A DNA stretch of 64,000 nucleotides from Desulfobacterales bacterium. GTDB taxonomy: Bacteria > Desulfobacterota > Desulfobacteria > Desulfobacterales > JAFDDL01. Under the pieces are notes generated by a model that did no database searches, was not told the DNA's origin, and was given only the letters and a program-made list of their open reading frames with translations. Location of the stretch: assembly GCA_034003325.1 (NCBI GenBank), contig JAVEYW010000002.1, positions 315,662-379,661 of the forward strand, read 5' to 3'. Position 1 is the first letter of the stretch. Each line of letters begins with the position of its first letter. The translations under genes were made by a program, and so were the position numbers. Shown piece by piece: positions 29,232 to 53,557 of this stretch.

Positions 29232-29266
29232 TCAACCAAAGAAAAAAGGGGCTAAGATTTTCATCT
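29232..29266 (+). repeat. left direct repeat (attL candidate)
   Basis: TCAACCAAAGAAAAAAGGGGCTAAGATTTTCATCT matches 53524-53557 except for one substitution and A6 versus A5. Confidence 0.8.
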
Positions 29267-29396
29267 GAATGATGCGGCGCGGGCACTGCTTGAAAACCAT
29301 CCGCGGGGTAGCGAATATGTATTTCCCGGGCGCGGCGGCCGGCGGCGAACTGATGTGAACCATCAGTTAAACCGAATCAAGGCGGCGGCCGGATGA
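29265..29396 (+). pseudogene. tyrosine recombinase (phage integrase family) internal fragment
   Basis: The translation 'LNDAARALLENHPRGSEYVFPGRGGRRRTDVNHQLNRIKAAAG*' matches the segment just before the catalytic core of tyrosine integrases. There is no N-terminus and no R..HxxR..Y core. Confidence 0.65.
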
Positions 29397-29548
29397 AAGA
29401 GCCATTTTAAACGCCGAATTGTTTGCCTTCAGATGGTTCAGCAAAAGCTTTGGATGCATAATGTATTTTAAATTTTCCATCAGGGGTGACCGGCTCTGGA
29501 TTGTTTCGTTACATGAAAATAGAGCCATAGGTGGGAAAGGGGGCAACG

Positions 29549-30361
29549 ATGGATTGTCCGAATGAACATGGGAAAATGGTCATTAAGGCCATGAAAAAAG
29601 AGGTGACTTTTCGCGACAAGCGAATTGAATATGATGCGGAGCACTATGTTTGCCCTGTTTGCGGCACTGAAGTGGATGATTTGGTGCTTGCGGCTGAAAA
29701 CCAAAAAAGAATATCCGATGCTTACCGGAAGGCCGTCAACCTGTTGACTGGCCAAGAGATTGTGATTGGAAGGAAAAAGCTTAAGTGGAGCCAAGCCCGC
29801 CTTGCAGAGGCAATGAGCGTTGGTATTGCCAGTGTGAAAAGGTGGGAAACCGGCCAGATACAGACCAAGCCCATGGATGATACCTTGCGTCGGGTTTTAT
29901 CCGGGAAGCCATCGGGAAATAACCCATACGCCGGCAACAGAAGCCTATCGCTTCAAAGAATAAAACGGGTTTTGCACCAGTTCAGCAAAACACTTGACCG
30001 GGATATGTTGAAAGATGATCCGGGGGACGTGCTTCTTTATGAGGCAAAATACATTTGGCTTGCTGACATAATTTCATTTCGGGAAACCGGCCGGGGAATG
30101 ACCGGGGCCACTTATGCCCGATTACCCCAAGGCCCTCAATTGAATAATTATAGGGATTTGGTTCCCATGATTAAAGCCGCTAATGAAGACGAAGCGGAGC
30201 CTCTTACTGATCACGAAATCAGAATTATTTCCCGGATTGCCGCCGCATACCCTACCAATAAGAGCATTTATGATGCATCTCATAACGAAGATGCTTACAA
30301 AACAAGAAGAGATGGCGAGCTTATGCTCTATACGGATGCCGAGAGTGTAAGGGCATTATGA
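29549..30361 (+). CDS. antitoxin-like protein: MqsA-type Zn-ribbon + HTH fused to Panacea/SocA (DUF4065) domain
   Basis: 'CPNEHGK...YVCPVCGTE' is a Zn ribbon and 'LTGQEIVIGRKKLKWSQARLAEAMSVGIASVKRWETG' is an HTH_XRE. 'LLYEAKYIWLADIISFRETGRGMTGATYARLPQGPQLNNY' has the DUF4065 pattern. Confidence 0.75.
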   Translation: MDCPNEHGKMVIKAMKKEVTFRDKRIEYDAEHYVCPVCGTEVDDLVLAAENQKRISDAYRKAVNLLTGQEIVIGRKKLKWSQARLAEAMSVGIASVKRWETGQIQTKPMDDTLRRVLSGKPSGNNPYAGNRSLSLQRIKRVLHQFSKTLDRDMLKDDPGDVLLYEAKYIWLADIISFRETGRGMTGATYARLPQGPQLNNYRDLVPMIKAANEDEAEPLTDHEIRIISRIAAAYPTNKSIYDASHNEDAYKTRRDGELMLYTDAESVRAL

Positions 30362-30389
30362 AGTCTATAAAGCCGGTTTCCGCCCGGCC

Positions 30390-30827
30390 TTGCCCCTCTC
30401 ACATCATGCGGGCGCTATCGAACGGAGGATAGTCCAAGTCCATGCCACAGATCATACCAAAGACCCCTATGCCTTAAATAAGCTTGTTTTATCTGGAGCG
30501 CGACCGGAAGAGAGCCATACTAAATGGATAGCCTGCTGGGAATTATTAAACGAGGGGCTCAAGCCCTTTGAGCTTTTCTGTTTTTTTAGGGATGGACATC
30601 TTCATCCACGACACCCAATTAATGGAGCTAAAATCATAAATCTTGATACAGTGGAGCGACAACCTAAACACTCCTTTGAAGAACTTTTTAATTCGTCCAT
30701 TGGCCATCCTCCTTCTGGTGTTGGATGGCTCTTTACCCACCCCATTTCGCCCTTCGAAGTTAAGCACGCTTGCCGGAATGACACATTCAAACCTGAATAC
30801 ATCAACCAAGCCTATGTCGCGTGTTAA
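30390..30827 (+). CDS. hypothetical protein, candidate toxin partner of the Panacea antitoxin
   Basis: A 145-aa ORF lying 28 nt after the antitoxin stop and 3 nt before the next gene. Only a TTG start is available and there is no clear RBS. I recognise no domain. Confidence 0.4.
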   Translation: MPLSHHAGAIERRIVQVHATDHTKDPYALNKLVLSGARPEESHTKWIACWELLNEGLKPFELFCFFRDGHLHPRHPINGAKIINLDTVERQPKHSFEELFNSSIGHPPSGVGWLFTHPISPFEVKHACRNDTFKPEYINQAYVAC

Positions 30828-30830: not shown

Positions 30831-31199
30831 ATGGGCGCGACCGATAGGCATTTGGCGAGATTATTCGGGGTTTGCAGAACCGCCGTCCAGACTTGGGCAA
30901 GAGAAAATTCTGAATTTCTGAGCGCCATAAAAAGAGGCCGCGATAAATATGATTCCGAGGTGGTTGAAAAGGCGTTACTAAAACGGGCAAATGGCTACCA
31001 ATTCACGGAAACCACCCTGGAATCAGACAAAACCGGAAAAATGGTTATTACCAAGCTGGTTCGAAAACAAATGGTACCCGACGTTACCGCCCAAATCTTT
31101 TGGTTGAAGAACCGGAACCCGGCGCGATGGCGAGATGCAAAATATATTGATGGATCGTTGCGGATATCGCATGAAGCAGCGTTGGCGGCGCTGGAATAA
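30831..31199 (+). CDS. HTH protein resembling phage small terminase subunit (TerS-like)
   Basis: 'TDRHLARLFGVCRTAVQTWARENSEFLSAIKRG...VEKALLKRANGY...VPDVTAQIFWLKNRNPARWRD' follows the pattern I associate with small terminase / DNA-packaging HTH proteins. Confidence 0.5.
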   Translation: MGATDRHLARLFGVCRTAVQTWARENSEFLSAIKRGRDKYDSEVVEKALLKRANGYQFTETTLESDKTGKMVITKLVRKQMVPDVTAQIFWLKNRNPARWRDAKYIDGSLRISHEAALAALE

Positions 31200-31830: not shown

Positions 31831-32043
31831 ATGGCCGAGATGGAAGATCGTTGGTTATCGATTAGCGAGATATGCAAATACCTCGGGGTTAGCAACGATA
31901 CCGTTTACAAGTGGATTGACAGGCATGGCATGCCTTCCCACCGCATGGGCCGTCTCTGGAAGTTCAAAAAAGACGAAGTTGACAAATGGGTGAAGGCCGG
32001 CGGCGCGGCTATGCACGGAAAAGGGAATCAAGGCCTGAAATGA
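31831..32043 (+). CDS. excisionase-family / MerR-like HTH DNA-binding protein
   Basis: The product is 70 aa with 'WLSISEICKYLGVSNDTVYKWIDRHGMPSHRMGRLWKFKKDEVDKWV', with the RBS gaggag. Its stop overlaps the first ATG of brxA (ATGA at 32040-32043). Confidence 0.8.
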   Translation: MAEMEDRWLSISEICKYLGVSNDTVYKWIDRHGMPSHRMGRLWKFKKDEVDKWVKAGGAAMHGKGNQGLK

Positions 32044-32654
32044 AGAATGAAAGATACATCATGTCACTTACAACGGGCGGTCTTTTTCTCCGCGAGTCGA
32101 TAAAGTTGGCGGCGCTCTTTCTTGAGCAAAGTGACTGGAATGCGATTAGAGAAAAGGTTCTTTCCGAAAACCTGTTGCAAACGAGAACGCTGAGCACCTC
32201 AAAACGATTCTGTCGGGAAATCATCTCCAGGCTAAAAACACTCGACCCCCGTGAGATTGACTTACTGGTTCACGGTAGCGGTCAGGAGCAAGGCTGTCTT
32301 TTGTGGATCGCGGTTTGCCGTCGTTACAAATTCATTGCCGAGTTTGCCGTAGAGATTATTCGGGAACGTTACATCAGTCTCAAGACCGATCTTCACTATG
32401 AAGACTTTGATTCCTTCTTTAACCGGAAATCAGAGTGGCATCCCGAGCTTGATATAATTAAGCCGGCGACTCGAAATAAGCTCCGTCAGGTGTTGTTCAA
32501 AATTCTGCGAGAAGCCGAACTTCTGACCAACGATTATACCATCAATGCCGCCATGTTGAGCCCCCGGCTCTTGGAAGCCATTTCGCACAATAGTCGTGAG
32601 GCTGTTCTGTTTTTTCCTGCTTTTGAGTCCGATTTAATAGGGAGGGCGCGATGA
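32040..32654 (+). CDS. brxA: BREX protein BrxA (DUF1819)
   Basis: 'SLTTGGLFLRESIKLAALFLEQSDWNAIREKVLSENLLQTRTLSTSKRFCREIISRL' is the DUF1819 pattern. It occupies the first position of a brxABC-pglX-pglZ-brxL array. An alternative start lies at 32061. Confidence 0.85.
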   Translation: MKNERYIMSLTTGGLFLRESIKLAALFLEQSDWNAIREKVLSENLLQTRTLSTSKRFCREIISRLKTLDPREIDLLVHGSGQEQGCLLWIAVCRRYKFIAEFAVEIIRERYISLKTDLHYEDFDSFFNRKSEWHPELDIIKPATRNKLRQVLFKILREAELLTNDYTINAAMLSPRLLEAISHNSREAVLFFPAFESDLIGRAR

Positions 32655-33262
32655 TTTCGGGTATCGAGAAGAAATCCATGCAAGAAAGATTTCAGCATCT
32701 GTTTGATGTGATCTCCGGAAAACGGTTTCTTCAGAAGCAAGGTCTCGGGAACGAAGTTCCTTTCTTCATTTGCCCTTTCAGACCGGAAGAGTGCGTCGAG
32801 ATGGAACGGCTGCAACGGCAGCTTGTCAACAGTCTTTCGCATGCGGGTGTCCGCGTGCTCGAAATTAACCTCTATGATCTTTCCATCGAGATTCTTAAAG
32901 GACGGGACCTCTGGGAACAAATCCTCGATATAGAAAACTCGGTGTCCAAGGAACAGCTCAGGGAGTTACTCCAAGGGGTGTTAGATCCCGAAGCCCATTT
33001 GGTCCCCGCCATCGCCGCCAAGCTTGCGAACAATGAATTTGACGTGCTGTTTCTGGCCGGCGTCGGTGCGGTTTTTCCCTATATCCGATCTCACAATGTG
33101 CTGAACAACCTGCAAAGCACGGCAAAAGAAAAACCGACCGTCATGTTCTTTCCGGGGGCCTATACCCACTCCCTGGAATCGGGCGCATCGCTCGATCTTT
33201 TTGGAAGATTGCATGACGATAAATACTACCGGGCGTTCAACATCTTTCACTGCGAAGCCTAA
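32651..33262 (+). CDS. brxB: BREX protein BrxB (DUF1788)
   Basis: Translation shows 'GNEVPFFICPFRPEE...', 'VLFLAGVGAVFPYIRSHNVLNNLQ' and 'VMFFPGAY'. There is an ATGA overlap with brxA. Confidence 0.85.
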   Translation: MISGIEKKSMQERFQHLFDVISGKRFLQKQGLGNEVPFFICPFRPEECVEMERLQRQLVNSLSHAGVRVLEINLYDLSIEILKGRDLWEQILDIENSVSKEQLRELLQGVLDPEAHLVPAIAAKLANNEFDVLFLAGVGAVFPYIRSHNVLNNLQSTAKEKPTVMFFPGAYTHSLESGASLDLFGRLHDDKYYRAFNIFHCEA

Positions 33263-33276
33263 ACGAAGGAAACACG

Positions 33277-36200
33277 ATGACGCTGAAAACTATTTTTAAT
33301 AAGCCTGTTGACCGACCGATTGAAGGGGTCATCAAAGCCGACGATGAAGAAAGCCTTCTCCTTGAAACCGAAGAGTATGTGCTGACCAATGAGGTGGAAA
33401 AGCGCTTGGAGTCATTCCTGGATGCTTACAACACCTACGAGGGGGCCAACGGGGTTTGGGTTTCCGGCTTCTTCGGGTCCGGGAAATCTCATCTGTTGAA
33501 GATGCTGGCACTGCTTCTGGAGAACCGGCGGATCGACGGCGTTTCCGCTCTCGATTTGTTTCTTCCCAAGTGCGGCGATAACGAGATTCTCCGAGGGGAT
33601 CTCAAGCGGGCCGTTGCGATTCCCTCAAAAAGTATCCTGTTCAACATCGACCAGAAGGCGGATGTTATCAGCAAAACCCAGATCGATGCGCTCCTTGCCG
33701 TATTCGTCAAGGTGTTCGACGAAATGTGTGGCTACTACGGCAAGCAGGGTCATATTGCTCAATTTGAGCGCGATCTCGACAGCCGGGGGCATTATGAGGC
33801 GTTCAAATCGGCTTATCAAACTCTTGCCGGGAAAAGCTGGGAAAAAGGGCGCGAACAGGCATTGCTGGAGTCACAGAATATCGCCAAGGCCTATGCCCGG
33901 GCCACCGGCGGCGAGGATACCTCGGCAATGGGGATTCTCGATAAATACAGAAGCCAGTATCGGGTCTCGATCGAGGACTTCGCCGATCAAATAAAGGCCT
34001 ATGTGGACCGGCAATCTCCCGAGTTCCGGCTGAACTTCTTTGTTGACGAGGTCGGACAGTACATCGCCGGAAACGTGAAGCTGATGACGAACCTTCAAAC
34101 CATCGCCGAAAGCCTTGCCACCAAGTGCCGGGGCCGAGCCTGGATCATGGTGACCGCTCAGGAGGACATGAATTCGGTTGTCGGTGAAATGAGTAACCAG
34201 CAGGGTAACGATTTTTCCAAGATTCAGGCCCGTTTTGCCAACCGGATGAAACTTACCAGCGCCGATGTGGCCGAAGTGATTCAAAGGCGCCTGTTATTGA
34301 AAAACGATGAGGGGGTTCGACTGCTGTCAGACGTTTATCATGCGGAGGTGAACAACTTCAAAACCCTCTTTGACTTTGCGGACGGCTCGCCGATCTACCG
34401 CAATTTCCAGGACCGGGACCATTTCATTCACAGCTATCCCTTTATCCCTTACCAGTTCGTGCTGTTCCAGTCCGCAATTCAGAACTTATCCCAACATAAT
34501 GCCTTTGAAGGAAAACACAGCTCGGTCGGTGAGCGCTCCATGCTGGGCGTATTCCAGCAGGTGGCCATTCAAATCGGAGATCATCAAATCGGACAGCTTG
34601 CAACCTTTGACCTGATGTTTGAAGGGATTCGAACGGTTCTGAAATCCAATATTCAGCGCTCCATCCTGCAATCCGAAAAGCAGCTCGACAACCCATTTGC
34701 CATTCGGCTGCTGAAAACGCTTTTTCTCGTCAAGTACGTCAAGGAATTTAAGCCGACAGTCCGCAACCTGTGCGTGCTGATGCTGGATCACTTCAAGCAG
34801 GATCTGCCCCAACTGCGCCGGCAGGTTGAAGAGGCGCTCAACCTGCTGGAACTTCAGACCTACATTCAACGCCATGGAGACCTCTACGCGTATCTCACCG
34901 ACGAGGAAAAGGATGTCGAGCAGGAGATCAAAAACACCGAAGTTGAATCCACCGAGATCGCCGCAGAGCTTGAAAAGATCATTTTTGATTATGTCATCAA
35001 GAACCGAAAGATTCGCTACGACGAGAAAGGGCAGGACTACCCCTATTCCAGGAAACTCGATGACCGCCTTCACGGTCGGGAATATGAGCTTTCGATCAAT
35101 GCGATAACCCCTTTTCACGAATTTGCGGGAAATGAGCAAACCTTGCGAAGTCACTCGTTCAACCGGGAAGAGCTGCTGGTCGTGATGCCGCCGAATGATC
35201 GACTGGTGCGCGATATTCTGATGTACAAGCGAACTGAAAAATACATCAAGCAGAACATTTCCATCACTCAGCAGGAAGGGGTCAAACGTATCCTGACCGA
35301 TAAGGGCTTCCAGAACGCGGATCGCTATGCGGAGTTGAAGCAGCTTATCCAGATGCTTCTTGGCAAAGCCAAACTTTTTGTGGCGGGCAATGAGGTCGAG
35401 ATCGGTGGAGAAGATCCCCAGGCCCGAATCACCAAGGGGTTTCAACAACTTATTATACGCGCTTATCCGAACCTGCGCATGCTGCGCGGAATTGCCTACA
35501 CCGAAAACGATGTCGTTAAATGCCTCAAACAGTCCAAGGAGGGGCTGTTCGGTAATGATGTGACATCACTGGCCGAATCAGAGCAGGAATTGCTTGCTTT
35601 CATCCAGAGCAACATCCGCGGCGGCGTGCGCACGACCCTGAAGAGCCTGCTGGAAAAGTTTGAGCGCAAGCCTTATGGCTGGCCTTATGCGGCCGTTCTC
35701 TGCACACTTGCTCATCTTTGCGCCCGGGGCAAGGTAGAGGTTCGGACTGACGGAACAATCCTTGAGGAAGACGACCTCGAACGCGCGCTTCGCAACACGC
35801 ACAGCCATGGCAATGTTGTGCTGGAACCACAGGTCGATTTTACCCCATCCCAGGTTCGCAGCCTCAAGGAGTTCTATGAGGATTTTTTCGATAGCCCGCC
35901 CCGTGCCACTGAAGCAAAGGCACTTGCCAAGGAGACCGGTGCTGCCTTGAAGGACATGATACAGGACCTAAACCCCCTGGCGGCGCAGTCGGCGCAGTAT
36001 CCTTTCCTGAATGTGCTGACCCCGGTTCTTGAGAAGCTGAAAGGACTCGCCGGCAAACCCTACGCTTGGTATCTGACCGGGCTGCTGTGTGAGGATAATG
36101 CCCTGATTGCGCTGAAGGAAAAGGTCATTGACCCGGTTCGAAAGTTCATGAACGGGCCGCAAAAGGGTATTTTCGACGCTGCCCGTAAATTTGTGCAGGA

Positions 36201-36867
36201 GCAGGAGCCGAATTTTGACTACATCAGAGAAAGGGGAAGTGGGAAGCTCGAAGTGAAAGAGGGCTCACCCTACGGTTTTACGCCTGATACCTTGCTTCAG
36301 GCTTTGGCTGATCCCGAATGTTTTAAGGGTAATGGCATGCAGCAGGTGAAAACCCTGGTGGACACGCTGCAAGAAAAGGTGACGGCACGGATCGCGGCAG
36401 AGATCAAAAAAGCTTTAGATACCGTTGCGGCACTCAAGGACCGTCTTTGTGATATGGCCGAATTTGCCGCGCTAAAGCCAAGCCAGCAGGAGCAAATCAC
36501 TCGGTCATTCATCGAGTTTTCTCAGTCGATTGAACAACAAAAACTGATCGCCGTGATTCGCGATAACCTGCGGCGCTTTGAAGAATCCGACTACCAACGG
36601 CTGCTTTCCCAAATGGCTTCCTGGGCAAAACCCACACCAAAGCAAACCCCTTCGGGGGGAAGCGAACCGGCGCAAGCTTCAGGAAAGGAAACGGCAGTAA
36701 CACCGATTGAACCGGAAGCCCCTGTTGAATACGTGTCAGGCCGAAATCTCAGGTTTTCCTTTGATAAAGCCTGGCTTGCTGATGATTCGGATGTGGACCG
36801 GTACCTCAAGGCCATGCGGGAGGCGCTTTTGGCTGAGATCCGGAAAGGGAAGCGGATACAGATTTAG
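33277..36867 (+). CDS. brxC: BREX system P-loop ATPase BrxC
   Basis: The product is 1196 aa with the Walker A 'GFFGSGKSHLLKML', 'FFVDEVGQYI', and the size and position typical of BrxC. Confidence 0.9.
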   Translation: MTLKTIFNKPVDRPIEGVIKADDEESLLLETEEYVLTNEVEKRLESFLDAYNTYEGANGVWVSGFFGSGKSHLLKMLALLLENRRIDGVSALDLFLPKCGDNEILRGDLKRAVAIPSKSILFNIDQKADVISKTQIDALLAVFVKVFDEMCGYYGKQGHIAQFERDLDSRGHYEAFKSAYQTLAGKSWEKGREQALLESQNIAKAYARATGGEDTSAMGILDKYRSQYRVSIEDFADQIKAYVDRQSPEFRLNFFVDEVGQYIAGNVKLMTNLQTIAESLATKCRGRAWIMVTAQEDMNSVVGEMSNQQGNDFSKIQARFANRMKLTSADVAEVIQRRLLLKNDEGVRLLSDVYHAEVNNFKTLFDFADGSPIYRNFQDRDHFIHSYPFIPYQFVLFQSAIQNLSQHNAFEGKHSSVGERSMLGVFQQVAIQIGDHQIGQLATFDLMFEGIRTVLKSNIQRSILQSEKQLDNPFAIRLLKTLFLVKYVKEFKPTVRNLCVLMLDHFKQDLPQLRRQVEEALNLLELQTYIQRHGDLYAYLTDEEKDVEQEIKNTEVESTEIAAELEKIIFDYVIKNRKIRYDEKGQDYPYSRKLDDRLHGREYELSINAITPFHEFAGNEQTLRSHSFNREELLVVMPPNDRLVRDILMYKRTEKYIKQNISITQQEGVKRILTDKGFQNADRYAELKQLIQMLLGKAKLFVAGNEVEIGGEDPQARITKGFQQLIIRAYPNLRMLRGIAYTENDVVKCLKQSKEGLFGNDVTSLAESEQELLAFIQSNIRGGVRTTLKSLLEKFERKPYGWPYAAVLCTLAHLCARGKVEVRTDGTILEEDDLERALRNTHSHGNVVLEPQVDFTPSQVRSLKEFYEDFFDSPPRATEAKALAKETGAALKDMIQDLNPLAAQSAQYPFLNVLTPVLEKLKGLAGKPYAWYLTGLLCEDNALIALKEKVIDPVRKFMNGPQKGIFDAARKFVQEQEPNFDYIRERGSGKLEVKEGSPYGFTPDTLLQALADPECFKGNGMQQVKTLVDTLQEKVTARIAAEIKKALDTVAALKDRLCDMAEFAALKPSQQEQITRSFIEFSQSIEQQKLIAVIRDNLRRFEESDYQRLLSQMASWAKPTPKQTPSGGSEPAQASGKETAVTPIEPEAPVEYVSGRNLRFSFDKAWLADDSDVDRYLKAMREALLAEIRKGKRIQI

Positions 36868-36921
36868 TGCCTTATGGATTATTTTCTTGTTATTTTAAAA
36901 AGAAAATAATCCATAAGGCAC
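36867..36921. repeat. perfect 22-bp inverted repeat (hairpin) immediately after brxC stop
   Basis: GTGCCTTATGGATTATTTTCTT (36867-36888) and AAGAAAATAATCCATAAGGCAC (36900-36921) are separated by an 11-nt loop. No downstream T-run follows. Confidence 0.85.
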
Positions 36922-36951
36922 TTATCCCGGCGCCGGGGTTAGGAGTTACAC

Positions 36952-38625: not shown

Positions 38626-38636
38626 GTTATGCGTCA

Positions 38637-38698
38637 GGCTCATAGCTTATGAGCCGGCTCATAGGAGGCTCATAGGAGGCTCATAGGAGGCTCATATC
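38637..38698 (+). repeat. GGCTCATA motif array: one 8-bp-stem palindrome plus 3.5 tandem copies of an 11-bp unit (GGCTCATAGGA)
   Basis: The sequence reads GGCTCATAgctTATGAGCC, then GGCTCATAGGA x3 (38656-38688), then GGCTCATAtc. It lies directly after the stop of the AlbA_2 gene, ~190 bp upstream of pglX. Confidence 0.9.
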
Positions 38699-38890
38699 TC
38701 GAATGCTTCCATGAAAAAAAATTCGAGAGACAAATATAAATACGACGCTGAATAGAGTGACCATCTTCCTGCGCCGGGAAAATGGTCAAGTTGGTAAGCA
38801 AAGCGGCAAATATCAATGTAACAAATAGAAACTACAAAGTAAAATGCTTAATAATAGGTTGGGGAAATCACCGGCGACAAAGGAAGATGG

Positions 38891-42406: not shown

Positions 42407-42413
42407 ACCGGAT

Positions 42414-43574
42414 ATGAGTGACAAGAACACCACGCAACCTGCATTGGACTTCGGACAACTGGTCGGTGTCATCCGTCAAGTCCATGACAAGTTGGCAGCC
42501 CAGGTAAGCCGGGCTGTCAATACCAGCCTCACCCTTCGCAACTGGATGATTGGGTTCCACGTTGAGGAGTATGAGCGCCGGGGCGTTGATCGTACCGAAT
42601 ACGGCGACAAGTTGATGGACATGCTCGCCGATAGTCTGACCCAGCTTGGCGTATCGCGTTGTGATCGGCGGGAAATTTACCGCTATCGCCAGTTGTATCT
42701 GACTTACCCGCAGATTGTGGAGATAGTGACTCCACAATTGCAGCCTCTGATAGGGCAGGTATGTTTGGCTGGTGCCGATTCTTCATCCGATGCCGCTGCC
42801 CCAACGATTGTGGAGACGTCTCCACAGTTCAGAATCGATGGTAAGACCCTGATTTCGCGCCTATCGTTTTCGCATATCGTGGAATTGCTCAACCTGGAAG
42901 ATGCCACCAAGCGCACGTTCTATGAGGTGGAGTGCATCCAGGGCAACTGGTCGGTTCGTGAATTGAGACGACAAATCCACAGCCTCTACTATGAACGTTG
43001 CGGCCTTTCGATAGATAAAAAGAAGCTTTCGGAACTTGCCCGGCAAGGCGCGGAGCAGGTGTCACCCGCCTTGCCGGTGCGCGACCCGTATATATTCGAG
43101 TTCCTGGGCCTGACGCCTCGAGAGGTGATGAGCGAATCACATCTCGAAGACCAGCTTATCAGTAAGATTGAAGAATTCCTTTTGGAGCTGGGCCACGGAT
43201 TCTGCTTTGAAGCCCGGCAAAAACGAATCCTGATCGGGGACGAGCATTATTTTATTGATCTGGTTTTCTATCACCGCATCCTGAAGTGCCATGTGCTGGT
43301 GGAGTTGAAACTGGCCGAGTTCAGCCATGAAAACATTGGCCAGCTCAATACCTACGTAAGCTGGTACAGAAAAAACATGATGCTTGAGGACGATAACCCG
43401 CCCATTGGCATCCTGCTTTGCACCCACAAGAAGCACTCTCTGGTCGAGTTCGCGCTGGCAGGTATGGATAACCGGCTATTTGTATCCAAGTACCAGATGG
43501 AGCTGCCCAAGCGGGAGGAAATCGAGCGGTTTCTTGCTGAAAAGCTCCATGAAGCAGGGGGCGTGGATGAGTGA
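42414..43574 (+). CDS. DUF1016 / YhcG-family PD-(D/E)XK nuclease
   Basis: The N-terminal helical domain reads 'LTLRNWMIGFHVEEYE...YGDKLMDMLADSL'. The C-terminus, 'RDPYIFEFLGL...HLEDQLISKIEEFLLELGHGFCFEARQKRILIGDEHYFIDLVFYHRILKCHVLVELKLAEF...GQLNTYVSWY', contains the D...ExK motif. The start is 7 nt after the pglX stop. Confidence 0.85.
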   Translation: MSDKNTTQPALDFGQLVGVIRQVHDKLAAQVSRAVNTSLTLRNWMIGFHVEEYERRGVDRTEYGDKLMDMLADSLTQLGVSRCDRREIYRYRQLYLTYPQIVEIVTPQLQPLIGQVCLAGADSSSDAAAPTIVETSPQFRIDGKTLISRLSFSHIVELLNLEDATKRTFYEVECIQGNWSVRELRRQIHSLYYERCGLSIDKKKLSELARQGAEQVSPALPVRDPYIFEFLGLTPREVMSESHLEDQLISKIEEFLLELGHGFCFEARQKRILIGDEHYFIDLVFYHRILKCHVLVELKLAEFSHENIGQLNTYVSWYRKNMMLEDDNPPIGILLCTHKKHSLVEFALAGMDNRLFVSKYQMELPKREEIERFLAEKLHEAGGVDE

Positions 43575-43677
43575 AAAAGGGGACTTATAAATGAAAATTA
43601 ACAGGTTGAGGTTAACCCTGAATTTACAGATATCCATGAAAGATCCCGAAAATAGAAACCGAAGGCGGCAATAGAAT

Positions 43678-46182: not shown

Positions 46183-46196
46183 AGGATGATCGAGCG

Positions 46197-48284
46197 ATGA
46201 ACGAACTTGACCAGAAAATAAACAAACACTTTCAAGGCCTTGTTGTTCGAAAAGATCTCGTCAAGACCGTCAAGGGCAACGCCATTGTTCCCTCCTACGT
46301 GCTTGAATATCTGCTGGGGCAATATTGCGCGACCAGCGACGAGGCTTCAATTGCGACAGGTATCGAGACCGTCAAGGAGATCCTGCGCAAGCACTATGTG
46401 CATCGAAACGAAGCGGGCCTGGTCCGTTCCAATATTAAGGAAAAGGGGCGCTATAAGGTCATTGACAAGATTAGCGTCGTGTTGAATGACAAGACGGATG
46501 CTTACGAGGCGGAGTTTTCCAATCTTGGTATCAAAAAGGTGCTGGTAGATTCCGGGACAGTGAAAGCGCACCCCAAGCTCTTGGTCAGCGGCGTCTGGTG
46601 CATCGCCGATATCGAATACGAGTTCACCGAGGAAAAAAATGCCACCCCCTGGATTTTATCAACGCTAAAACCGATCCAGCTGTCTCACTTTGATTTTGAT
46701 GGCTATGTTGAAGCCAGGAAACAATTTAACACCGACGAGTGGATCGATCTTTTGATCCAGAGCATCGGTTTCAACCCGGAGATGTTTGGCCGGCGGAGCA
46801 AGCTTTTGCAACTGATCCGGCTCATCCCCTTCTGCGAGCGCAACTACAACCTGATCGAACTCGGCCCCAAGGGGACGGGGAAATCCCATATCTATTCGGA
46901 GTTTTCACCCCACGGCATTCTGCTCTCCGGCGGTGAGGTAACCGTTCCCAAGCTATTTGTAAATAACGCCTCCGGTAAGATCGGCCTTGTCGGCTACTGG
47001 GATGCAGTCGCCTTCGATGAGTTCGCTGGGAAACAAAAGAAGGTGGATAAGGCGCTTGTGGATATCCTGAAAAATTACATGGCCAATAAGTCCTTCTCAA
47101 GGGGCGTTGAAACCCTCGGCGCGGAGGCATCCATGGTTTTTGTCGGGAATACCCGGCACACCGTGCCTTACATGCTCAAGCATTCAGATCTGTTCGACGA
47201 GCTGCCCGAAAAGTTCTATGACTCCGCATTCCTTGACCGTATTCATTTTTACATTCCCGGCTGGGAAGTGGATATCATCCGTGGCGAGATGTTTTCCAAT
47301 GGCTATGGTTTTGTGGTGGATTACCTTGCGGAGATCCTCCGGTCTCTGCGCAACCACGATTATTCGGACCGTTACAAAGAGCACTTTTCGCTTTCCACCG
47401 ATATCTCGACCCGCGACCGGGACGGTATCCATAAAACGTTTTCAGGCCTGATGAAGATCCTTTTCCCGGATGGAGGCGCATCCAAGGAGGAGATCGAGGA
47501 ACTGCTGAAGTTCGCCATTGAAGGCCGAAAGCGCATCAAAGATCAATTGCTGCGAATAGATACCACTTACCCAAGGGTGAAATTTGCCTATTTGGATACC
47601 ACGGGAAAAACCCGGCTGGTGAAAACACTCGAAGAAGAGGAGTATCCCCATTGCTACCACAAGACCGTTGCTGAAGAGGAAGCCGGAGCAACTGATACCG
47701 ACATCGATTCCCAAGAAATTCCAGATTCCCCACACGGAGATTCTTCCGATGCCCAACCTGCCGTCAAGGAACAACATCTGACTTTCCAGGAAAACCAGAG
47801 GGGCATCTCTTTTGACACCTTGCTTGGCCCATATCTGCGCGGCGCAAGCCGGATTACCATGACAGACCCCTATATCCGCCTGTTTTATCAAATGCGTAAC
47901 TTCATGGAATTCCTTGAAACAGTCGCAAAAAACAAGCCCAAGGACGAAGAGGTCACTGTTCACCTGGTAACAACAGAAGACGAGTTCAAAGGGGCACAAC
48001 AGAAAGAAAATTTCGAGAAGATAAAGGAATCCTGCGGCGCCGTTGGTATTGACTTTACCTGGGAATTTGACGCAACCGGGACTATTCACGCTCGCCACAT
48101 CGTGACCGATCATGGATGGAAGATCCTTCTGGATCGAGGCCTGGATATCTTCCAGCACTATGAGATGAACGATGCCTTCACTTTTGCCAACCGCCTTCAG
48201 CAATATCGGTCTTGTAAGGCCTTCGAGGCTACATTTATTAAAAATGAAATCTGTTCACATAGCACTGCTGCGGCAAAATCATGA
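46197..48284 (+). CDS. brxL: BrxL-family ATPase (Lon_2-type N-terminal + AAA core) with non-canonical C-terminal MIT_C/PLD-fold domain
   Basis: The N-terminus 'MNELDQKINKHFQGLVVRKDLVKTVKGNAIVPSYVLEYLLGQY' and the Walker A 'GPKGTGKSH' with 'WDAVAFDEFAG' are BrxL-like. The last ~170 aa, 'GISFDTLLGPYL...TDPYIRLFYQMRNFMEFLE...VHLVTT...IHARHIVTDHGWKILLDRGLDIF', align by eye with the MITD1 C-terminal domain. Confidence 0.8.
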   Translation: MNELDQKINKHFQGLVVRKDLVKTVKGNAIVPSYVLEYLLGQYCATSDEASIATGIETVKEILRKHYVHRNEAGLVRSNIKEKGRYKVIDKISVVLNDKTDAYEAEFSNLGIKKVLVDSGTVKAHPKLLVSGVWCIADIEYEFTEEKNATPWILSTLKPIQLSHFDFDGYVEARKQFNTDEWIDLLIQSIGFNPEMFGRRSKLLQLIRLIPFCERNYNLIELGPKGTGKSHIYSEFSPHGILLSGGEVTVPKLFVNNASGKIGLVGYWDAVAFDEFAGKQKKVDKALVDILKNYMANKSFSRGVETLGAEASMVFVGNTRHTVPYMLKHSDLFDELPEKFYDSAFLDRIHFYIPGWEVDIIRGEMFSNGYGFVVDYLAEILRSLRNHDYSDRYKEHFSLSTDISTRDRDGIHKTFSGLMKILFPDGGASKEEIEELLKFAIEGRKRIKDQLLRIDTTYPRVKFAYLDTTGKTRLVKTLEEEEYPHCYHKTVAEEEAGATDTDIDSQEIPDSPHGDSSDAQPAVKEQHLTFQENQRGISFDTLLGPYLRGASRITMTDPYIRLFYQMRNFMEFLETVAKNKPKDEEVTVHLVTTEDEFKGAQQKENFEKIKESCGAVGIDFTWEFDATGTIHARHIVTDHGWKILLDRGLDIFQHYEMNDAFTFANRLQQYRSCKAFEATFIKNEICSHSTAAAKS

Positions 48285-48347: not shown

Positions 48348-50006
48348 ATGAGAAAAGAGACATTACCCGTTCCATTTCCAAGATCGTACTGGGTTATCCC
48401 TGGCGTATTCATGGCCGGAGAATTTCCAGGTGCGCAAAGCCAGATTGAGGCAGACCATAAGCTTATCAAACTGATTGATTGCGGAATTCAGCACATCATT
48501 TGTTTGATGCAGCCGGATGAAACCGATCATAGTGGAAATCCCTTTAACGAATATGAAGATAGTGTCTTAAGGTTAGCAGAAAAGAAAAAAGTGACCGTGT
48601 CCTGTTTCAGGTTTCCCATAGCCGATCAGAATGTGCCAGGGGAATCTGAAATGAAGGTAATTCTTGATGCTATCACAATCAGCATCGAAAACCGGAAACC
48701 CGTCTACGTTCATTGTTGGGGCGGCATCGGTCGTACAGGCACAGTAGTAGGCTGTTTTTTATTGAAAAACGGGCTCGCTACTTCCGGCGATGTATTGCAA
48801 ACCATAGCCGATTTGCGAAAAGACGATCCGAAGAAACACCGAATCTCCCCCGAAACGGATGCCCAGCGAAAATATGTTAAATCTTGGCTCGATAGAGATA
48901 ATGGGCAACCAACAAACCTTTCGCGGACCATTGGGTGCATGTTGGGTGGCGCCGTCGGAGACGCATTGGGCGCCCCTGTTGAGTTTATGAAACGAGAGGA
49001 TATCCTGCGTCGTTTTGGGCCGGATGGAATTACCAGCTACGCACCGGCTTACGGAGGCTTGGGCACCATTACCGACGATACCCAGATGACGCTTTTTACC
49101 GCAGAAGGTTTAATTCGAGGTGATGTCCGAGGCCGCCACAAGGGCATTACGACGTACACAGGCATGACCGAAAACGCTTACCAGCGCTGGCTTTACACTC
49201 AAGGGGAGCGGTCTGCTAAATATATCGATATTAGCGGTGAAGGAGCGGGATGGCTGATCCAGCAACAGGCTTTGCACAACCGCCGGGCACCGGGGAACAC
49301 CTGCATTTCAGCTCTTAAGGAGATGTCGAAAACCGATAAACCAGCCCGTAATAACAGCAAGGGATGTGGCGGGGTGATGCGGATGGCGCCGGCCGGATTG
49401 TTTCACTGGCGCCTGAAAAACTACCATTCACCGCAGGAAACCTTCCAACTCGGAAAGGAACTGGCAGCGCTAACTCACGGTCACCCTACCGGAGCGCTTA
49501 CTGGTGGGGTGCTGGCTATTCTGATCTTAGCGCTGGCAGATGGTGCGACACTACCGGACGCTCTTTCATTGGCTAAAACCTTATTACGTCAGGAACGCCA
49601 GCATGAAGAAACGCTGTTGGCCATACAGCTTGCCGAAGAATATTCGAAGGCTGACATGCCCCATGAAGTTGCTATTTCTAAAATCGGCTTGGGATGGATC
49701 GCCGAAGAAGCGCTTGCCATCTCGATTTATTGTGCTCTCGTTGCCCGCGATTTTCGGGATGGTATCATTCTGGCGGTGAATCACGATGGTGATTCAGACT
49801 CGACGGGTTCGATTACTGGCGATCTTCTTGGCACTGTTTATGGCGCAAATGCCATTCCGCATGAATGGCTAGAGCCTCTTGAGTTAAGGGCGGTGATAAC
49901 CGAGTTGGCCCAAGATCTGTATGTTTTTCGCAACTGGAATATTGGCGAGTACTCAAATAACGAGGAATTAAACAAGTACATCTGGGAAAAATATCCTGGA
50001 TACTAA
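48348..50006 (+). CDS. fusion protein: CX5R (dual-specificity/PTP-like) phosphatase domain + ADP-ribosylglycohydrolase (ARH/DraG family) domain
   Basis: The N-terminal ~185 aa carry the P-loop 'VHCWGGIGRTGTVVG'. The C-terminal ~360 aa read 'GCMLGGAVGDALGAPVEF...TITDDTQMTLFTAEGL...GCGGVMRMAP...HGHPTG...AVNHDGDSDSTGSITGDLLG', the typical ARH metal-binding signatures. Confidence 0.85.
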   Translation: MRKETLPVPFPRSYWVIPGVFMAGEFPGAQSQIEADHKLIKLIDCGIQHIICLMQPDETDHSGNPFNEYEDSVLRLAEKKKVTVSCFRFPIADQNVPGESEMKVILDAITISIENRKPVYVHCWGGIGRTGTVVGCFLLKNGLATSGDVLQTIADLRKDDPKKHRISPETDAQRKYVKSWLDRDNGQPTNLSRTIGCMLGGAVGDALGAPVEFMKREDILRRFGPDGITSYAPAYGGLGTITDDTQMTLFTAEGLIRGDVRGRHKGITTYTGMTENAYQRWLYTQGERSAKYIDISGEGAGWLIQQQALHNRRAPGNTCISALKEMSKTDKPARNNSKGCGGVMRMAPAGLFHWRLKNYHSPQETFQLGKELAALTHGHPTGALTGGVLAILILALADGATLPDALSLAKTLLRQERQHEETLLAIQLAEEYSKADMPHEVAISKIGLGWIAEEALAISIYCALVARDFRDGIILAVNHDGDSDSTGSITGDLLGTVYGANAIPHEWLEPLELRAVITELAQDLYVFRNWNIGEYSNNEELNKYIWEKYPGY

Positions 50007-50059
50007 AGGGGAAATATGGCTCCTGTATTTCAGCGGCCATATTTGATCAAGGTGCCTTG

Positions 50060-50761
50060 ATGTCAATTTTTTCTTCTATAAAAGGTTTCGATGGCGAGTT
50101 AACTGGGTGGTTGTCCAAAAAACTGTTTCTCGATAGTGAAATTTATAAAGATTTTAACAACGTCACCATTAATACAAACAGTGGCACCACGCAAATTGAT
50201 CAGATAATCGTTTCCAAATTCGGGATTTTTGTCATTGAGGTTAAAAATTTAAAAGGTTGGATTTTTGGGGATGAAAAAGCTGCAAAATGGACACAAGCCC
50301 TTAATGGGAAAAAATATCAGTTCCAGAATCCATTGCGGCAGAATTTCAGACACACAAAAGCGTTATCTGCGTTTCTTGGTATAGACCACTCCAAGATTTA
50401 TTCCGTGGTGATGTTTTGGGGAGAGTGTGAATTCAAGACACCTATGCCGGAAAATGTCATGATGCGCGGCTGGACCAAGTATGTTAAATCCAAGTCGAAG
50501 ATAATGTTCACAGATGATGAAGTCGTCCAAATCGGTGAAGCTATCATGACCGGCCGTCTCCCAGCGACCTGGAACACAAAAAAGGCTCACCTTCAATCAC
50601 TGAAGGAGAGACACCAAGACGATGGCGTTTGCCCTAAATGCGGCCGTGGTCTCGTTTTGAGAACCGTTAGAAAAGGCCCCGAAATTGGAAGTCAGTTTTA
50701 CGGATGTTCAGGATTTCCTCAGTGCCATTTCACAAAAGCCGCCAAAATTGCAAACGGATGA
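50060..50761 (+). CDS. NERD-domain protein with C-terminal topoisomerase-type C4 zinc finger
   Basis: 'QIDQIIVSKFGIFVIEVKNLKGWIFGDEKAAKWTQ...QFQNPLRQNFRHTKAL' is NERD, and 'CPKCGRGLVLRTVRKGPEIGSQFYGCSGFPQCHF' is zf-C4_Topoisom-like. The gene is markedly AT-rich. Confidence 0.8.
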   Translation: MSIFSSIKGFDGELTGWLSKKLFLDSEIYKDFNNVTINTNSGTTQIDQIIVSKFGIFVIEVKNLKGWIFGDEKAAKWTQALNGKKYQFQNPLRQNFRHTKALSAFLGIDHSKIYSVVMFWGECEFKTPMPENVMMRGWTKYVKSKSKIMFTDDEVVQIGEAIMTGRLPATWNTKKAHLQSLKERHQDDGVCPKCGRGLVLRTVRKGPEIGSQFYGCSGFPQCHFTKAAKIANG

Positions 50762-51239
50762 AGTCGAGTTTTGGTATCTGATGAAGATCACAGCCTGACC
50801 CAACTCTGCGATAAGAGAATAATATGGTGTGATATTGGAATGTTGTAAACTCCATTTGCCAATCCATTTTGATTGATCACAATATATTGAAATGCTCTGC
50901 GGGCAGTCCTAATTCCAGGCAATTGCAAAGTAAAACCGGTTTTTCACCTATCCGATTTTCTTGTTATAATCTCAATGTACGGCAAATATGCACCACCAAC
51001 TCAAAGGCCCTTTATGTTCGTGACAAGCGGAAGAAAAAATAGATTGAAAATTCTAACAATACAAATGCTGCCAAATTGTAAAATCGCAGCTGATTTTTGC
51101 CATTCGGCGGATTGCGATCACCCGCAAATTCCTGCTCCAGGAGAAACTCATGACAAGAAGAAACCAAAACGCAAACCGACCGCGGGGCCTTCCCGGCCCG
51201 TCGCACAGCGACATGGACGAAACGGAATATGACCGGGAA

Positions 51240-52319
51240 ATGACCGGGACGCATCTATTCAGATCGCTGAGTATCCGCGCTGTCACCTTTCGTAATCGCA
51301 TCGTCATGTCGCCCATGTGCCAGTACAGTGCCGAAGAGGGGTTGGCAAACGACTGGCACCTTGTTCATCTCGGCAGCCGAGCGGTCGGTGGGGCCGCACT
51401 AGTGATGGTGGAAGCGACCGCCGTAACTCGCGATGGCCGCATCTCTCCCGGTGACCTGGGCATTTGGGACGACAAACATGTTGAGCCGCTGGCCCGGATT
51501 GCCCGTTTTATCCACTCCCAGGGTGCCGTCGCCGGCATTCAATTGGCTCATGCCGGGCGAAAGGCAAGTTGCGAGCGGCCGTTCTTGGGCGGTGCCAGCC
51601 TCAAAACGCCTGAAAGCGGCGGCTGGACCGTTATCGGCCCCAGCCCGCTTCCGTTTGCCGATGGCTATCCGGTCCCGGTGGAACTCGATGAGGTAGGGAT
51701 CGACGGCATTGTTGCCGCCTTTGAGACAGCCGCTCGCAGAGCACTCAATGCAGGGTTCCGGGTGATCGAGATTCACGCAGCCCACGGTTACCTGTTACAT
51801 GAATTCTTGTCCCCTCTGAGCAACCATCGGGCAGATCGATATGGTGGGAGTCTGGAGAATCGAATGCGACTGCCCTTGCGGGTCGCCGAGCGCCTTCGCA
51901 ACGTGATGCCCGATGCTCTGCCGCTGTTCATGCGTATCTCGGCGACCGACTGGGTGGACGGCGGCTGGGATATTGAGCAGTCAGTCGTGTTCGCTCGTCA
52001 CGCGAAAAACCTCGGGGTTGACCTGATCGATGTCTCTTCCGGGGCATTGGTCCCGAATGCGCAAGTCCCGGTGGCAAGGGGTTATCAGATTCCGCTATCC
52101 CGCCGAATTCGCGACGGGGCGAATATCAGGACGGGCGGTGTTGGGTTGATCACCGAAGCTTATCATGCCGATGAGATCTTGACTGGCGGAGATGCTGACA
52201 TGGTGTTCATCGGCCGTGAGTTGTTGCGAGAGCCCTACTGGGCTCTAAAGGCTCAACACGAACTGGGGGAGGAGCCGATTTGGCCGCCTCCTTACGGGTA
52301 CGCAGTCAAGAGGAAATAG
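51240..52319 (+). CDS. namA: NADH:flavin oxidoreductase / NADPH dehydrogenase (Old Yellow Enzyme family, NamA-like)
   Basis: Translation shows 'LFRSLSIRAVTFRNRIVMSPMCQYS', 'HLGSRAVGGAALVMVEATAV', 'IQLAHAGRKAS', 'IEIHAAHGYLLHEFLSPLSNHRADRYGGSLENR'. The track ORF starts earlier, at 51150. Confidence 0.9.
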   Translation: MTGTHLFRSLSIRAVTFRNRIVMSPMCQYSAEEGLANDWHLVHLGSRAVGGAALVMVEATAVTRDGRISPGDLGIWDDKHVEPLARIARFIHSQGAVAGIQLAHAGRKASCERPFLGGASLKTPESGGWTVIGPSPLPFADGYPVPVELDEVGIDGIVAAFETAARRALNAGFRVIEIHAAHGYLLHEFLSPLSNHRADRYGGSLENRMRLPLRVAERLRNVMPDALPLFMRISATDWVDGGWDIEQSVVFARHAKNLGVDLIDVSSGALVPNAQVPVARGYQIPLSRRIRDGANIRTGGVGLITEAYHADEILTGGDADMVFIGRELLREPYWALKAQHELGEEPIWPPPYGYAVKRK

Positions 52320-53078
52320 AGCAGGGGCGAATTCAAACGCCCAATCCCAATGCCGCAAGCCCGGTTCACGGCTTTTCAGTCCAAAAACGGAGATGGAGAT
52401 AGGGTTGATGGGTCACAGCTACATTCCAGCCCTTTGATATGATAATAATTTCAAAAAGAAAGCCTACAATTTAAAATCCGGAGTAATGGTGTTATCCGCT
52501 CTCTGCCCGGATTGGCCGGCGGATCGGCAGAAACATTTGACGAGGGTATTGGATGATTTGCGGCGGCAAATTAAACATAGGCCGGCTTTCCATCAGGGGC
52601 ATTTGGGTATGAACGGATTTTCGTCCTGACCGTGGTGTCATATTTTTAGCAATGGTAACCAGTGGCAGCCCGATAAATAAAATTATCAAATACGCCGGAA
52701 CGGTTAATTCTGAAAAAATTGATGATGGTGCTCTTAACGATGGTTGCTCTTAATTGACTTTCACCTACCATTCGGTTAATTTTGAATCAAGAAGGCTGCG
52801 ATTCGCATCTATCCCCGGTAAACTAAGGCCGGTAAGATTATGCGCGATTGCGGCCTTTGTTATTTCTATGTCGGAAATGAAAGTGAGATGAAGTGCTCTG
52901 TGTGTATTCTCAGCCAGACCTTTCCTTCCGACAACCTATTTGCCGCCCCATGCCATTTCAAAGGAAAGGTGGCCGGCATGAATATCATAAAAGGATGATC
53001 TGATTTGCGGCCTTGCCTCGCTGATTGATTCCGGCTTGCCTGCCCTGAGCGCATCCTTCCCGGTAATCCGGTAATCGG

Positions 53079-53285
53079 TTATCCCTGGCAGATCTCCGCT
53101 CTTACTATTTCGTCCGCCTCGTAATCCCTCAGGCCGCTTTCCATCAACTGGTTTTTCCGCTCCTGCGCCTGTCTGCTCCTTTCCAGACAATGGCGTTCCA
53201 GGTCCTTTGCAACCTTCAGTTCCTTGTAAAATTTCTTGTCTCGATTCTTCAGATATTCCTTCCTCAATTCGGCGAATCTGTCCAT
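53079..53285 (-). CDS. small TnpV-like protein (68 aa), mobile-element associated
   Basis: 'MDRFAELRKEYLKNRDKKFYKELKVAKDLERHCLERSRQAQERKNQLME' resembles the central region of transposon protein TnpV ('R..YLKEHRP.LY..L..SGKL..HL......AQER'). It has an RBS (aaaaaggaggatagcc). Confidence 0.4.
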   Translation of the reverse strand: MDRFAELRKEYLKNRDKKFYKELKVAKDLERHCLERSRQAQERKNQLMESGLRDYEADEIVRAEICQG

Positions 53286-53523
53286 GGGCTATCCTCCTTT
53301 TTTTAATCAGGGGTCTTGATCAGGCTATCCGGCCTGGGCACGGGGTGTCAAGCTGGATTGTTTGGGGAAGGTTGTGGGTACGGGTTCAGGTCATGGTCCG
53401 GAGAGTGATCGGAAGAAAGTGGGGTTGAAGCGTTTTTTTAGGCGTGGGTGATGTCGCACGGTTAATCCACCCGAAAAGGATGTTTCTTTGCAGCAGGTTG
53501 GAAATTTGGTTGGAAAAGGATTT

Positions 53524-53557
53524 TCACCCAAAGAAAAAGGGGCTAAGATTTTCATCT
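53524..53557 (+). repeat. right direct repeat (attR candidate)
   Basis: TCACCCAAAGAAAAAGGGGCTAAGATTTTCATCT matches 29232-29266. Confidence 0.8.

Follow-up and report, generated by a model that had tools for sequence, protein, structure and literature searches.

We analysed a 64,000-nucleotide stretch, here called the window, of a Desulfobacterales bacterium (contig JAVEYW010000002.1 of assembly GCA_034003325.1, positions 315,662 to 379,661, forward strand). It holds an island of about 24 kb (29232-53557) that is bounded by two short direct repeats, lies next to the 3' end of a tRNA-Asp gene and carries a complete type 1 BREX system. To the right of the tRNA genes runs a core block with lon, clpX, clpP, tig, tRNA-Leu and tRNA-Pro. 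To the left of the island lie an MFS transporter, an HlyD/ABC-2 transporter, an AcrB pump, an aminotransferase and UbiD/UbiA, and no mobile-element gene was found in this flank. We consider it likely that the region is a dead integrative island that once targeted tRNA-Asp, and that its repeats are the stump of a longer attachment-site (att) duplication. The features at its two ends, on which this reading turns, are as follows:

29232-29266, no strand assigned: left (tRNA-distal) direct repeat, TCAACCAAAGAAAAAAGGGGCTAAGATTTTCATCT, 35 nt
29265-29411, + strand: internal tyrosine-integrase fragment reading into the island, equivalent to residues 262-311 of the 389-residue integrase P0122
53496-53516, - strand: tandem 9-mers TTTCCAACC-AAA-TTTCCAACC, putative arm-type integrase sites of the tRNA-proximal arm
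53524-53557, no strand assigned: right (tRNA-proximal) direct repeat, TCACCCAAAGAAAAAGGGGCTAAGATTTTCATCT, 34 nt
53539-53564, - strand: hairpin with an 11-bp stem, then a T-run on the tRNA strand (folding, terminator scan and covariation)
53577-53654, - strand: tRNA-Asp(GTC) (ARAGORN and Rfam), the putative integration target
53699-53774, - strand: tRNA-Val(TAC) (ARAGORN and Rfam), after which come the core genes lon, clpX, clpP and tig

The repeats lie where the initial annotation, made from the letters alone, had placed them, and the sequence read confirms that only an A/C substitution and an additional A set the two copies apart. The exact 22-mer common to both, AAAGGGGCTAAGATTTTCATCT, has just two sites in the window even with up to 3 mismatches tolerated, against 0 copies expected by chance (100 shuffles), and a repeat search of the window returned the pair as repeat family D4. 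The left copy consists of the complement of a T-run, then one arm of the hairpin with its loop and 4 nt of the second arm; it is 91% identical over 34 nt to the hairpin module of a related locus, L083. The right copy extends, as had been noted, into TAACCCC, which completes the 11-bp stem. The distance from this stem to the 3' end of tRNA-Asp, earlier given as 13 nt, measures 12 nt (53565-53576). On the tRNA strand, the right end of the island reads CAAAAAAATCAA-GGGGTTAAGATGAAAATCTTAGCCCC-TTTTTCTTTGGGTGAAAATCC-TTTTCCAACC-AAA-TTTCCAACC. Besides the two tRNAs, Rfam gave no matches in the window.

The hairpin folds with −25.2 kcal/mol (z −5.4) on the tRNA strand and with −21.7 kcal/mol (z −4.8) on the + strand, where it has one C.A mismatch, and the left repeat yielded no fold in the same test. 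A terminator scan flagged the right copy only, and on the - strand only. Thus, the earlier description of a bidirectional terminator is borne out only in part: folding was obtained on both strands, but the scan picks out one. Across five loci, 98.2% of the cells in the stem alignment are paired, with compensatory changes at 5 of the 11 pairs, a covariation score that none of 500 shuffles reached. As pairing is kept with compensatory changes and no shuffle matched the score, the hairpin is a structure under selection, and its simplest role is to terminate the tRNA-Val/tRNA-Asp transcript.

The inner edge of the left repeat runs into the integrase fragment, a junction that the initial annotation had recognised. 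In a tblastn search, residues 262-311 of P0122 matched 29265-29411 with 80% identity (E 3e-18), and no other integrase-like piece was found in the window with this query. P0122 is also the nearest of 120 members of the integrase family (39/44 residues, 89%). As a protein query by itself, the fragment (43 aa) was too short and drew no candidates. The fragment is 67% identical to residues 245-289 of P0121, the integrase of locus L086 (E 2e-17). At the DNA level, the match to the integrase gene of locus L089 (79% over 130 nt) begins exactly at 29266. The fragment is tRNA-distal and reads inward, the placement and orientation seen in the intact L086 element. About 44-50 of some 389 codons are left, and none of the catalytic Arg, His-x-x-Arg and Tyr residues lies within the surviving fragment (residues ~262-311).

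The nature of the complete element can be gauged from relatives at the same tRNA. The Lon protein P0004, which is 78% identical to the Lon of the window, is encoded in three genomes. Loci L084 and L085 are empty sites and L086 is occupied: L084 and L086 are 99.98% identical up to the 3' end of tRNA-Asp and 97% identical beyond it, and relative to L084, L086 is longer by an insertion of 7,713 bp, the 36-nt overlap of which falls within the 3' end of tRNA-Asp. The insertion codes for a DUF2335 protein, a PriCT/AAA_25 protein, a Prim-Pol, an HTH_17 (helix-turn-helix, HTH) protein and, at the tRNA-distal end, a 368-aa tyrosine integrase reading inward. Directly outside the integrase, 48 nt duplicate the 3' half of tRNA-Asp and cover it from the anticodon stem-loop through to its 3' end. 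L086 is thus a classical case of tRNA-gene integration, in line with the Islander account (PMC4383910). After its tRNA-Asp come a spacer (AAAATCAA), a hairpin (GGGGTTAGGCAATAATGCTTAACCCC), TTTTTCCTTGGCTTAAAATCC and the 9-mers GTACCCACC-ACT-ATACCCACC. This hairpin module after the tRNA is element-borne in L086; the terminator of the empty site in L084 differs from it.

The right end of the window has the same build. The tRNA, spacer and hairpin of the window are 97.7% identical to L083 over 131 nt, 85.5% identical to L086 over 159 nt and 83% identical to locus L087 over 159 nt, and the alignment keeps spacer, hairpin, T-run and tandem 9-mers in register between the window and its relatives. Equivalents of the window 9-mers occupy the same position as GTACCCACC-NCT-ATACCCACC in L083 and L086 and as ATTCCAAGC..TTTCCAATCC in L087, and from this position we predict that they are arm-type integrase binding sites. 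The hairpin belongs to the att module carried by the P0121/P0122 integrase element family. The initial view of an integrase-derived island beside tRNA-Asp that is bounded by att-derived repeats is supported.

The left end of the window is best understood through L089, the locus on which the gene for P0122 sits and which comes from the same sample as L083. L083 and L089 have in common a 99-nt repeat at 93% identity, together with ATACCCACC motifs, so that L089 probably represents the other end of the L083 element. Within the shared block, the 48-nt tRNA part is identical and the spacer and hairpin have diverged. At its far end, L089 has, in order, a chromosomal gene, CAACAAATAA, a complete hairpin (GGGGCTATGATTTTCATCATAGCCCC), a spacer (TTGATTTTATTA), the 48-nt tRNA-Asp half, an arm and the integrase; the arm, of about 190 nt, contains GGTGGGTATAGTGGTGGGTATAA and is followed by the integrase start codon. 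This far-end block is 90.4% identical to the right end of the window over 104 nt. The left end of the window keeps the L089 order but lacks 1,044 nt, a gap that opens in the middle of the hairpin and closes at integrase codon 262: ...TTTTCATCT, which reaches 4 bases into the second hairpin arm, is joined directly to that codon. At the junction, 1-3 nt (around 'TCT') are common to the hairpin and the likely ancestral integrase sequence, a pattern that would be compatible with a microhomology deletion. As a functional attP, the attachment site of the element, could not have its edge at codon 262 of the integrase, the inner edge of the left repeat is read as a deletion scar and not as the edge of a recombination core. 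The two repeats are therefore most likely, judged from these alignments, what remains of an att duplication of about 100 nt, made up of the tRNA half, the spacer and the hairpin, once a deletion of some 1 kb had also taken the recombination core and two-thirds of the integrase.

The tRNA-Asp site shows further signs of traffic. In L084 (12650-12720), tRNA-Val and tRNA-Asp have a degenerate, tRNA-like piece between them, as they do in L086; the far end of the element in L086 (20383-20592) holds two successive tRNA-Asp 3' remnants with different terminators. The degenerate piece and the double remnants are signs of serial integrations at a tRNA-Asp hot spot. L087, whose Lon is 77% identical to that of the window, has the same hairpin module after tRNA-Asp (12720-15200), with TTCCAA-type tandem repeats like those of the window, followed by an IS4-type transposase, a DUF4258 toxin and an HTH_3 protein; no integrase is present there, and the locus looks like another decayed occupant of the tRNA-Asp site. 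In L171 (9700-9980), the integrase P0229, which is 73% identical to the window fragment, adjoins the 3' remnant of a different tRNA that has its own terminator hairpin, with tandem GTTGGGTATAG repeats alongside. This layout at another tRNA indicates that family members switched tRNA targets with the att layout unchanged. All of the intact relatives examined (L086, L089 and L171) recombine within a tRNA gene.

The repeats, the hairpin, the identity of the fragment and the homology of the modules are seen directly, and the following course is the most economical that accords with them. The island would have begun as an element whose tyrosine integrase belonged to the P0121/P0122 family and which recombined site-specifically within the 3' half of tRNA-Asp, a crossover point that we infer from the relatives. 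Its attP would have carried a target-like block of about 100 nt (tRNA-Asp 3' half, 12-nt spacer, 11-bp terminator hairpin and T-run) with the 9-mer arm sites beyond. After integration, the copy of the block brought by the element would have completed the tRNA and supplied its terminator, giving the right end now seen in the window; tRNA-Asp is indeed intact beside the island, and the sequence downstream of it is homologous to the element-borne module of L086. The displaced copy would have come to lie at the far end, with the chromosomal flank (the MFS gene) on one side and the integrase gene on the other. Later, about 1.04 kb would have been deleted, perhaps through the 1-3 nt 'TCT' microhomology: integrase codons 1-261 and the arm would have been lost along with the displaced tRNA half, the spacer and 7 nt of the hairpin, leaving the 35-nt stump that is the left repeat; a second loss would have taken the integrase C-terminus past codon ~305-311. 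With neither a far-end core site nor a catalytic integrase, the island is incapable of site-specific excision, which agrees with the earlier judgement that the integrase is a remnant and the island immobilised and goes beyond it, the far-end core having been lost too. Its only route of removal could be rare homologous recombination across a 24-nt perfectly identical stretch. An ancestral order of MFS gene, shared terminator and tRNA-Asp is plausible, and the left hairpin stump may stem either from that ancestral terminator or from one end of an earlier element in tandem.

Several observations weigh against this reconstruction. A displaced copy of the tRNA-Asp 3' half was found nowhere in the window; the crossover inside the tRNA is thus drawn from relatives, and the missing fragment is accounted for by the 1,044-nt deletion relative to L089. 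L083 and L089 share one sample, and their origin in a single genome is only presumed. The island has no cargo in common with the relatives of about 7 kb, and its GC content is intermediate between those of its flanks, with no compositional sign of foreignness. Finally, no empty site of a close relative was found for the genome of the window, the available relatives being 85-87% identical in Lon and at most 70% identical in the MFS protein.

The wider neighbourhood bears on this last point. The order tig-clpP-clpX-lon-tRNA-Val-tRNA-Asp is kept in relatives, the nearest of which have Lon proteins 85-87% identical to that of the window; the closest two (P0002 and P0003) were compared by gene lists. 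Among these nearest Lon relatives, tRNA-Asp is followed by an adenine deaminase, a beta-lactamase-fold gene or element-like open reading frames (ORFs), which amounts to a synteny break in every relative examined. The only exact match to the Lon of the window lies on a 3.3-kb contig that ends inside tRNA-Val. For the MFS protein, no exact match is on record; relatives in species-representative genomes reach 70% identity at most, and none of the 23 best loci (~60-70%) adjoins a tRNA. An MFS gene next to tRNA-Asp was seen in none of the relatives examined. The empty-site comparison that had been proposed as a check could be made for the related element, with L084 and L085 as the empty sites and L086 as the occupied one; no empty site with the MFS gene was found.

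Among other explanations, the one that fares best supposes a tandem array: an earlier element of this family would have left its tRNA-proximal end as the left stump, the present island would have entered the regenerated tRNA later, and deletions would have taken the junction along with most of the earlier element. In that event, the MFS gene would not be the ancestral neighbour of tRNA-Asp. The hot-spot character of the site, with the two nested tRNA remnants and their different terminators in L086, is in keeping with such a history, as are the decayed element with its insertion sequence at the same site in L087, the element-borne hairpin of L086 and the varied genes after tRNA-Asp. Yet past the T-run the left copy meets ordinary transport genes and no arm-type repeats, the left flank is free of mobile-element genes, and at least two deletions ending in the same ~35 nt would be needed, which makes it less economical; we hold it to be improbable.

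The initial annotation had instead placed the integration inside the hairpin rather than inside the tRNA. On this account, the terminator hairpin between the MFS gene and tRNA-Asp was the chromosomal attachment site (attB), recombining with an attP that shared about 34 nt with it, and the repeats are complete attL and attR cores. The restriction of the repeat to the hairpin region and a left end without any tRNA fragment speak for this, and the core sites of tyrosine recombinases favour dyad symmetry, which hairpins have. However, the fusion of the left repeat to integrase codon 262 requires a deletion here too, and tRNA genes are where the relatives of this integrase recombine. The hairpin belongs to the element in L086, and in L083/L089 it falls outside the block of perfect identity, the 48-nt tRNA part. 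The tRNA-targeting relatives, the L086 hairpin, the layout of L089 and the codon-262 edge argue against the proposal, which is not supported, and we now give integration at the hairpin little credence.

That the repeat is a dispersed sequence resembling repetitive extragenic palindromes or terminators, or a chance match uninformative on the island, is barely credible: the 22-mer recurs on an unrelated low-GC metagenome contig (L082) in a perfect terminator hairpin near a dnaK-like gene, but its 2 copies in 64 kb stand against 0 expected, the module was found only beside tRNA-Asp or its remnant in the 174 loci fetched, L082 excepted, and the repeat is flanked by the integrase fragment on one side and the att-arm module on the other. 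L082 was the only match of the 22-mer among metagenome contigs, and viral contigs gave none. At L082 (240-290), AAAAAAGGGGCTAAGATTTTCATCTTAGCCCCTTTTT is a perfectly paired form of the same hairpin and forms a terminator beside the dnaK-like gene with no tRNA nearby; about 0.1 chance 22-mer matches would be expected in a collection of that size by a rough estimate, and the match is probably one of convergence, which L082 shows to be possible for terminator-like sequences, or of chance. A target-site duplication made by a transposase was considered and rejected, because such a duplication would be shorter than 34 nt and because integrase and att features are present in the flanks.

To return to the island that we regard as a decayed tRNA-Asp integrant, its composition was also surveyed. 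The GC content falls from 0.535 in the left flank through 0.503 in the island to 0.482 in the right flank; GC was consequently rejected as a marker of foreignness, since the island falls between the flank values. Within the island, it ranges from 0.418 (the NERD gene) to 0.595 (the Old-yellow-enzyme gene). This internal spread indicates a mosaic, in agreement with the varied composition first noted by eye, and the cargo was probably put together stepwise. The left flank (1-29231) has a GC content at third codon positions of ~0.6-0.7 and is richer in GC than the right flank (53558-64000), an excess that could reflect expression-linked bias or a different origin.

The cargo between the integrase fragment and the 9-mers comprises the following genes:

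29531-30361, + strand: MqsA-family zinc-ribbon/HTH antitoxin fused to a Panacea (SocA-like) domain (Pfam; TIGR03830 E 1.5e-22)
30390-30827, + strand: 145-aa ORF with no match in Pfam, PHROGs, PADLOC or NCBIfam
30831-31199, + strand: small-terminase-like (TerS-like) protein (phrog_309 E 1.5e-33)
31831-32043, + strand: excisionase-family HTH_17 protein just upstream of brxA (PF12728 E 1.6e-16; TIGR01764 E 1e-21)
31986-48284, + strand: complete type 1 BREX system (Pfam; PADLOC for PglX, BrxL and PDC-S02; NCBIfam for PglZ type A), with the next eight entries within it
31986-32654, + strand: brxA
32651-33262, + strand: brxB
33277-36867, + strand: brxC
36952-38625, + strand: Schlafen AlbA_2/HATPase_c_4/wHTH protein, nested between brxC and pglX
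38891-42406, + strand: pglX
42387-43574, + strand: YhcG/DUF1016 PDDEXK nuclease, nested between pglX and pglZ
43678-46182, + strand: pglZ, type A by NCBIfam
46197-48284, + strand: brxL
48348-50006, + strand: DSP-type phosphatase fused to an ADP-ribosylglycohydrolase, directly after brxL
50057-50761, + strand: NERD nuclease domain with a Top1-type zinc ribbon, the lowest GC of the island (0.418)
51150-52319, + strand: Old-yellow-enzyme (OYE) family NADH:flavin oxidoreductase, the highest GC of the island (0.595)
53079-53285, - strand: TnpV-like remnant of 68 codons (PF14198 E 8.1e-7)

Domain and family searches thus agree with the TerS-like, BREX, OYE and TnpV-remnant content proposed at the outset. 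The assignment to type 1 BREX follows from the gene content, with six genes in one cluster that score far over the Pfam, PADLOC and NCBIfam cut-offs. After brxL, the phosphatase/ADP-ribosylglycohydrolase fusion has no PADLOC match and the NERD/zinc-ribbon protein has weak similarity to the N-terminus of PglW; both are candidate BREX-linked accessory genes. Between the Schlafen-like gene and pglX (38637-38696), we observed a palindrome, GGCTCATAGCTTATGAGCC, followed by ~3.7 tandem copies of the 11-mer GGCTCATAGGA, an array that could be a regulatory or phase-variable element for pglX. Searches of the whole island against phages gave no matches, and against plasmids the only similarity was that of BREX, at 74%, on Methylomonas plasmids. 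On the Methylomonas koyamae plasmid NZ_AP019778.1 (3750-11039), a BREX-1 system ~74% identical to that of the window was found, and PDDEXK and Shedu nucleases are annotated somewhere under the match that spans pglX, pglZ and brxL. The gap between pglX and pglZ may be a recurrent slot for accessory genes.

Upstream of BREX, the 145-aa ORF may be the toxin partner of the MqsA/Panacea protein in a new toxin-antitoxin pair; the MqsA/Panacea protein had no matches among viral contigs. The TerS-like protein has relatives in at least 593 viral contigs at ~40-53% identity, and no large terminase lies next to its gene. With tblastx, neither the other small ORFs of the island nor its right end matched the TerS-bearing viral loci. 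The L086 integrase had a single match among viral contigs, at 30% identity. It is a doubtful proposition that the hairpin functions within the recombination site of this integrase lineage, for instance as a structured accessory site or a secondary core site, that the island is a satellite-derived BREX vehicle, and that the phosphatase/ADP-ribosylglycohydrolase and NERD genes are new add-ons to BREX with a defence or regulatory role, all three jointly; were the hairpin functional in recombination, the deletion endpoint would be the product of an aberrant integrase-mediated event and not of random illegitimate recombination.

The main value of these observations is in annotation and method. Short repeats that lie beside a tRNA gene, and not inside it, may be all that is left of an att duplication of the classical tRNA type, and the target site read from such stumps then misleads, here giving 'terminator hairpin' in place of 'tRNA 3' half'. 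Further, the case documents an integrase family in Desulfobacterales-type genomes that has a replacement terminator with covariation, as well as tandem arm repeats, in its attP, marks the tRNA-Asp downstream of lon as a recurrent integration hot spot, and offers an instance in which BREX-1, complete and with several accessory genes nested in it, became fixed in a chromosome through decay of its carrier. The current understanding of genomic islands or BREX is unchanged by an island of this ordinary kind.

The island can be set against several known systems. For integration at tRNA genes, tRNA sublocation classes were reportedly set out by Williams in 2002. Compared with its own closest relatives, the window shares with L086 and L083/L089 the integrase family, the target tRNA, the post-tRNA module and the placement and orientation of the integrase. 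These relatives (~7.7 kb; integrase, HTH_17, Prim-Pol and PriCT/AAA_25) resemble phage satellites or integrative mobilisable elements, whereas the window island, at 24 kb, has no primase or helicase and no shared cargo, and instead carries a TerS-like gene and BREX. According to Islander, a catalogue of tRNA-gene islands with tyrosine integrases, islands regenerate the tRNA gene that they split and leave the displaced fragment at the far end (PMC4383910). Like the tRNA-targeting islands of that account (PMC4383910), the island in the window has an integrase at one end, reduced to a fragment, and probably a regenerated tRNA 3' part, and its relatives L086 and L089 also have the displaced copy at the far end and an att identity running from the anticodon stem-loop to the 3' end. 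Unlike such islands, the window has lost its displaced tRNA fragment and most of the integrase, so that a search of the Islander type would miss it, and the att homology runs past the tRNA into the spacer and terminator hairpin.

With regard to defence, the brxA-brxB-brxC-pglX-pglZ-brxL genes of the window stand in the canonical order of type 1 BREX, for which the reference is said to be that of Goldfarb and colleagues from 2015. The window differs in nesting a Schlafen-like gene between brxC and pglX and a YhcG PDDEXK gene between pglX and pglZ, and in adding the phosphatase/ADP-ribosylglycohydrolase fusion and the NERD protein after brxL. The Methylomonas plasmid BREX-1, at 74% identity, likewise has a PDDEXK gene, along with Shedu, probably in the gap between pglX and pglZ. 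Phage satellites of the phage-inducible chromosomal island (PICI) or P4-like kind reportedly carry defence systems, as in work attributed to Rousset and colleagues and to Fillol-Salom and colleagues, both of 2022. The window differs from these satellites in having no replication module and no capsid-size or packaging-redirection genes, and in being about twice their usual size; with no primase or helicase and 24 kb against a unit of 7-15 kb, the island falls outside the satellites as a class, and helper-phage mobility would now be impossible. Nevertheless, it resembles PICI and P4-like satellites in its integrase, its excisionase/AlpA-like HTH protein, its stand-alone TerS-like gene, its defence cargo and its tRNA site, and the TerS-like gene and the excisionase-like HTH protein hint at a satellite-like ancestry.

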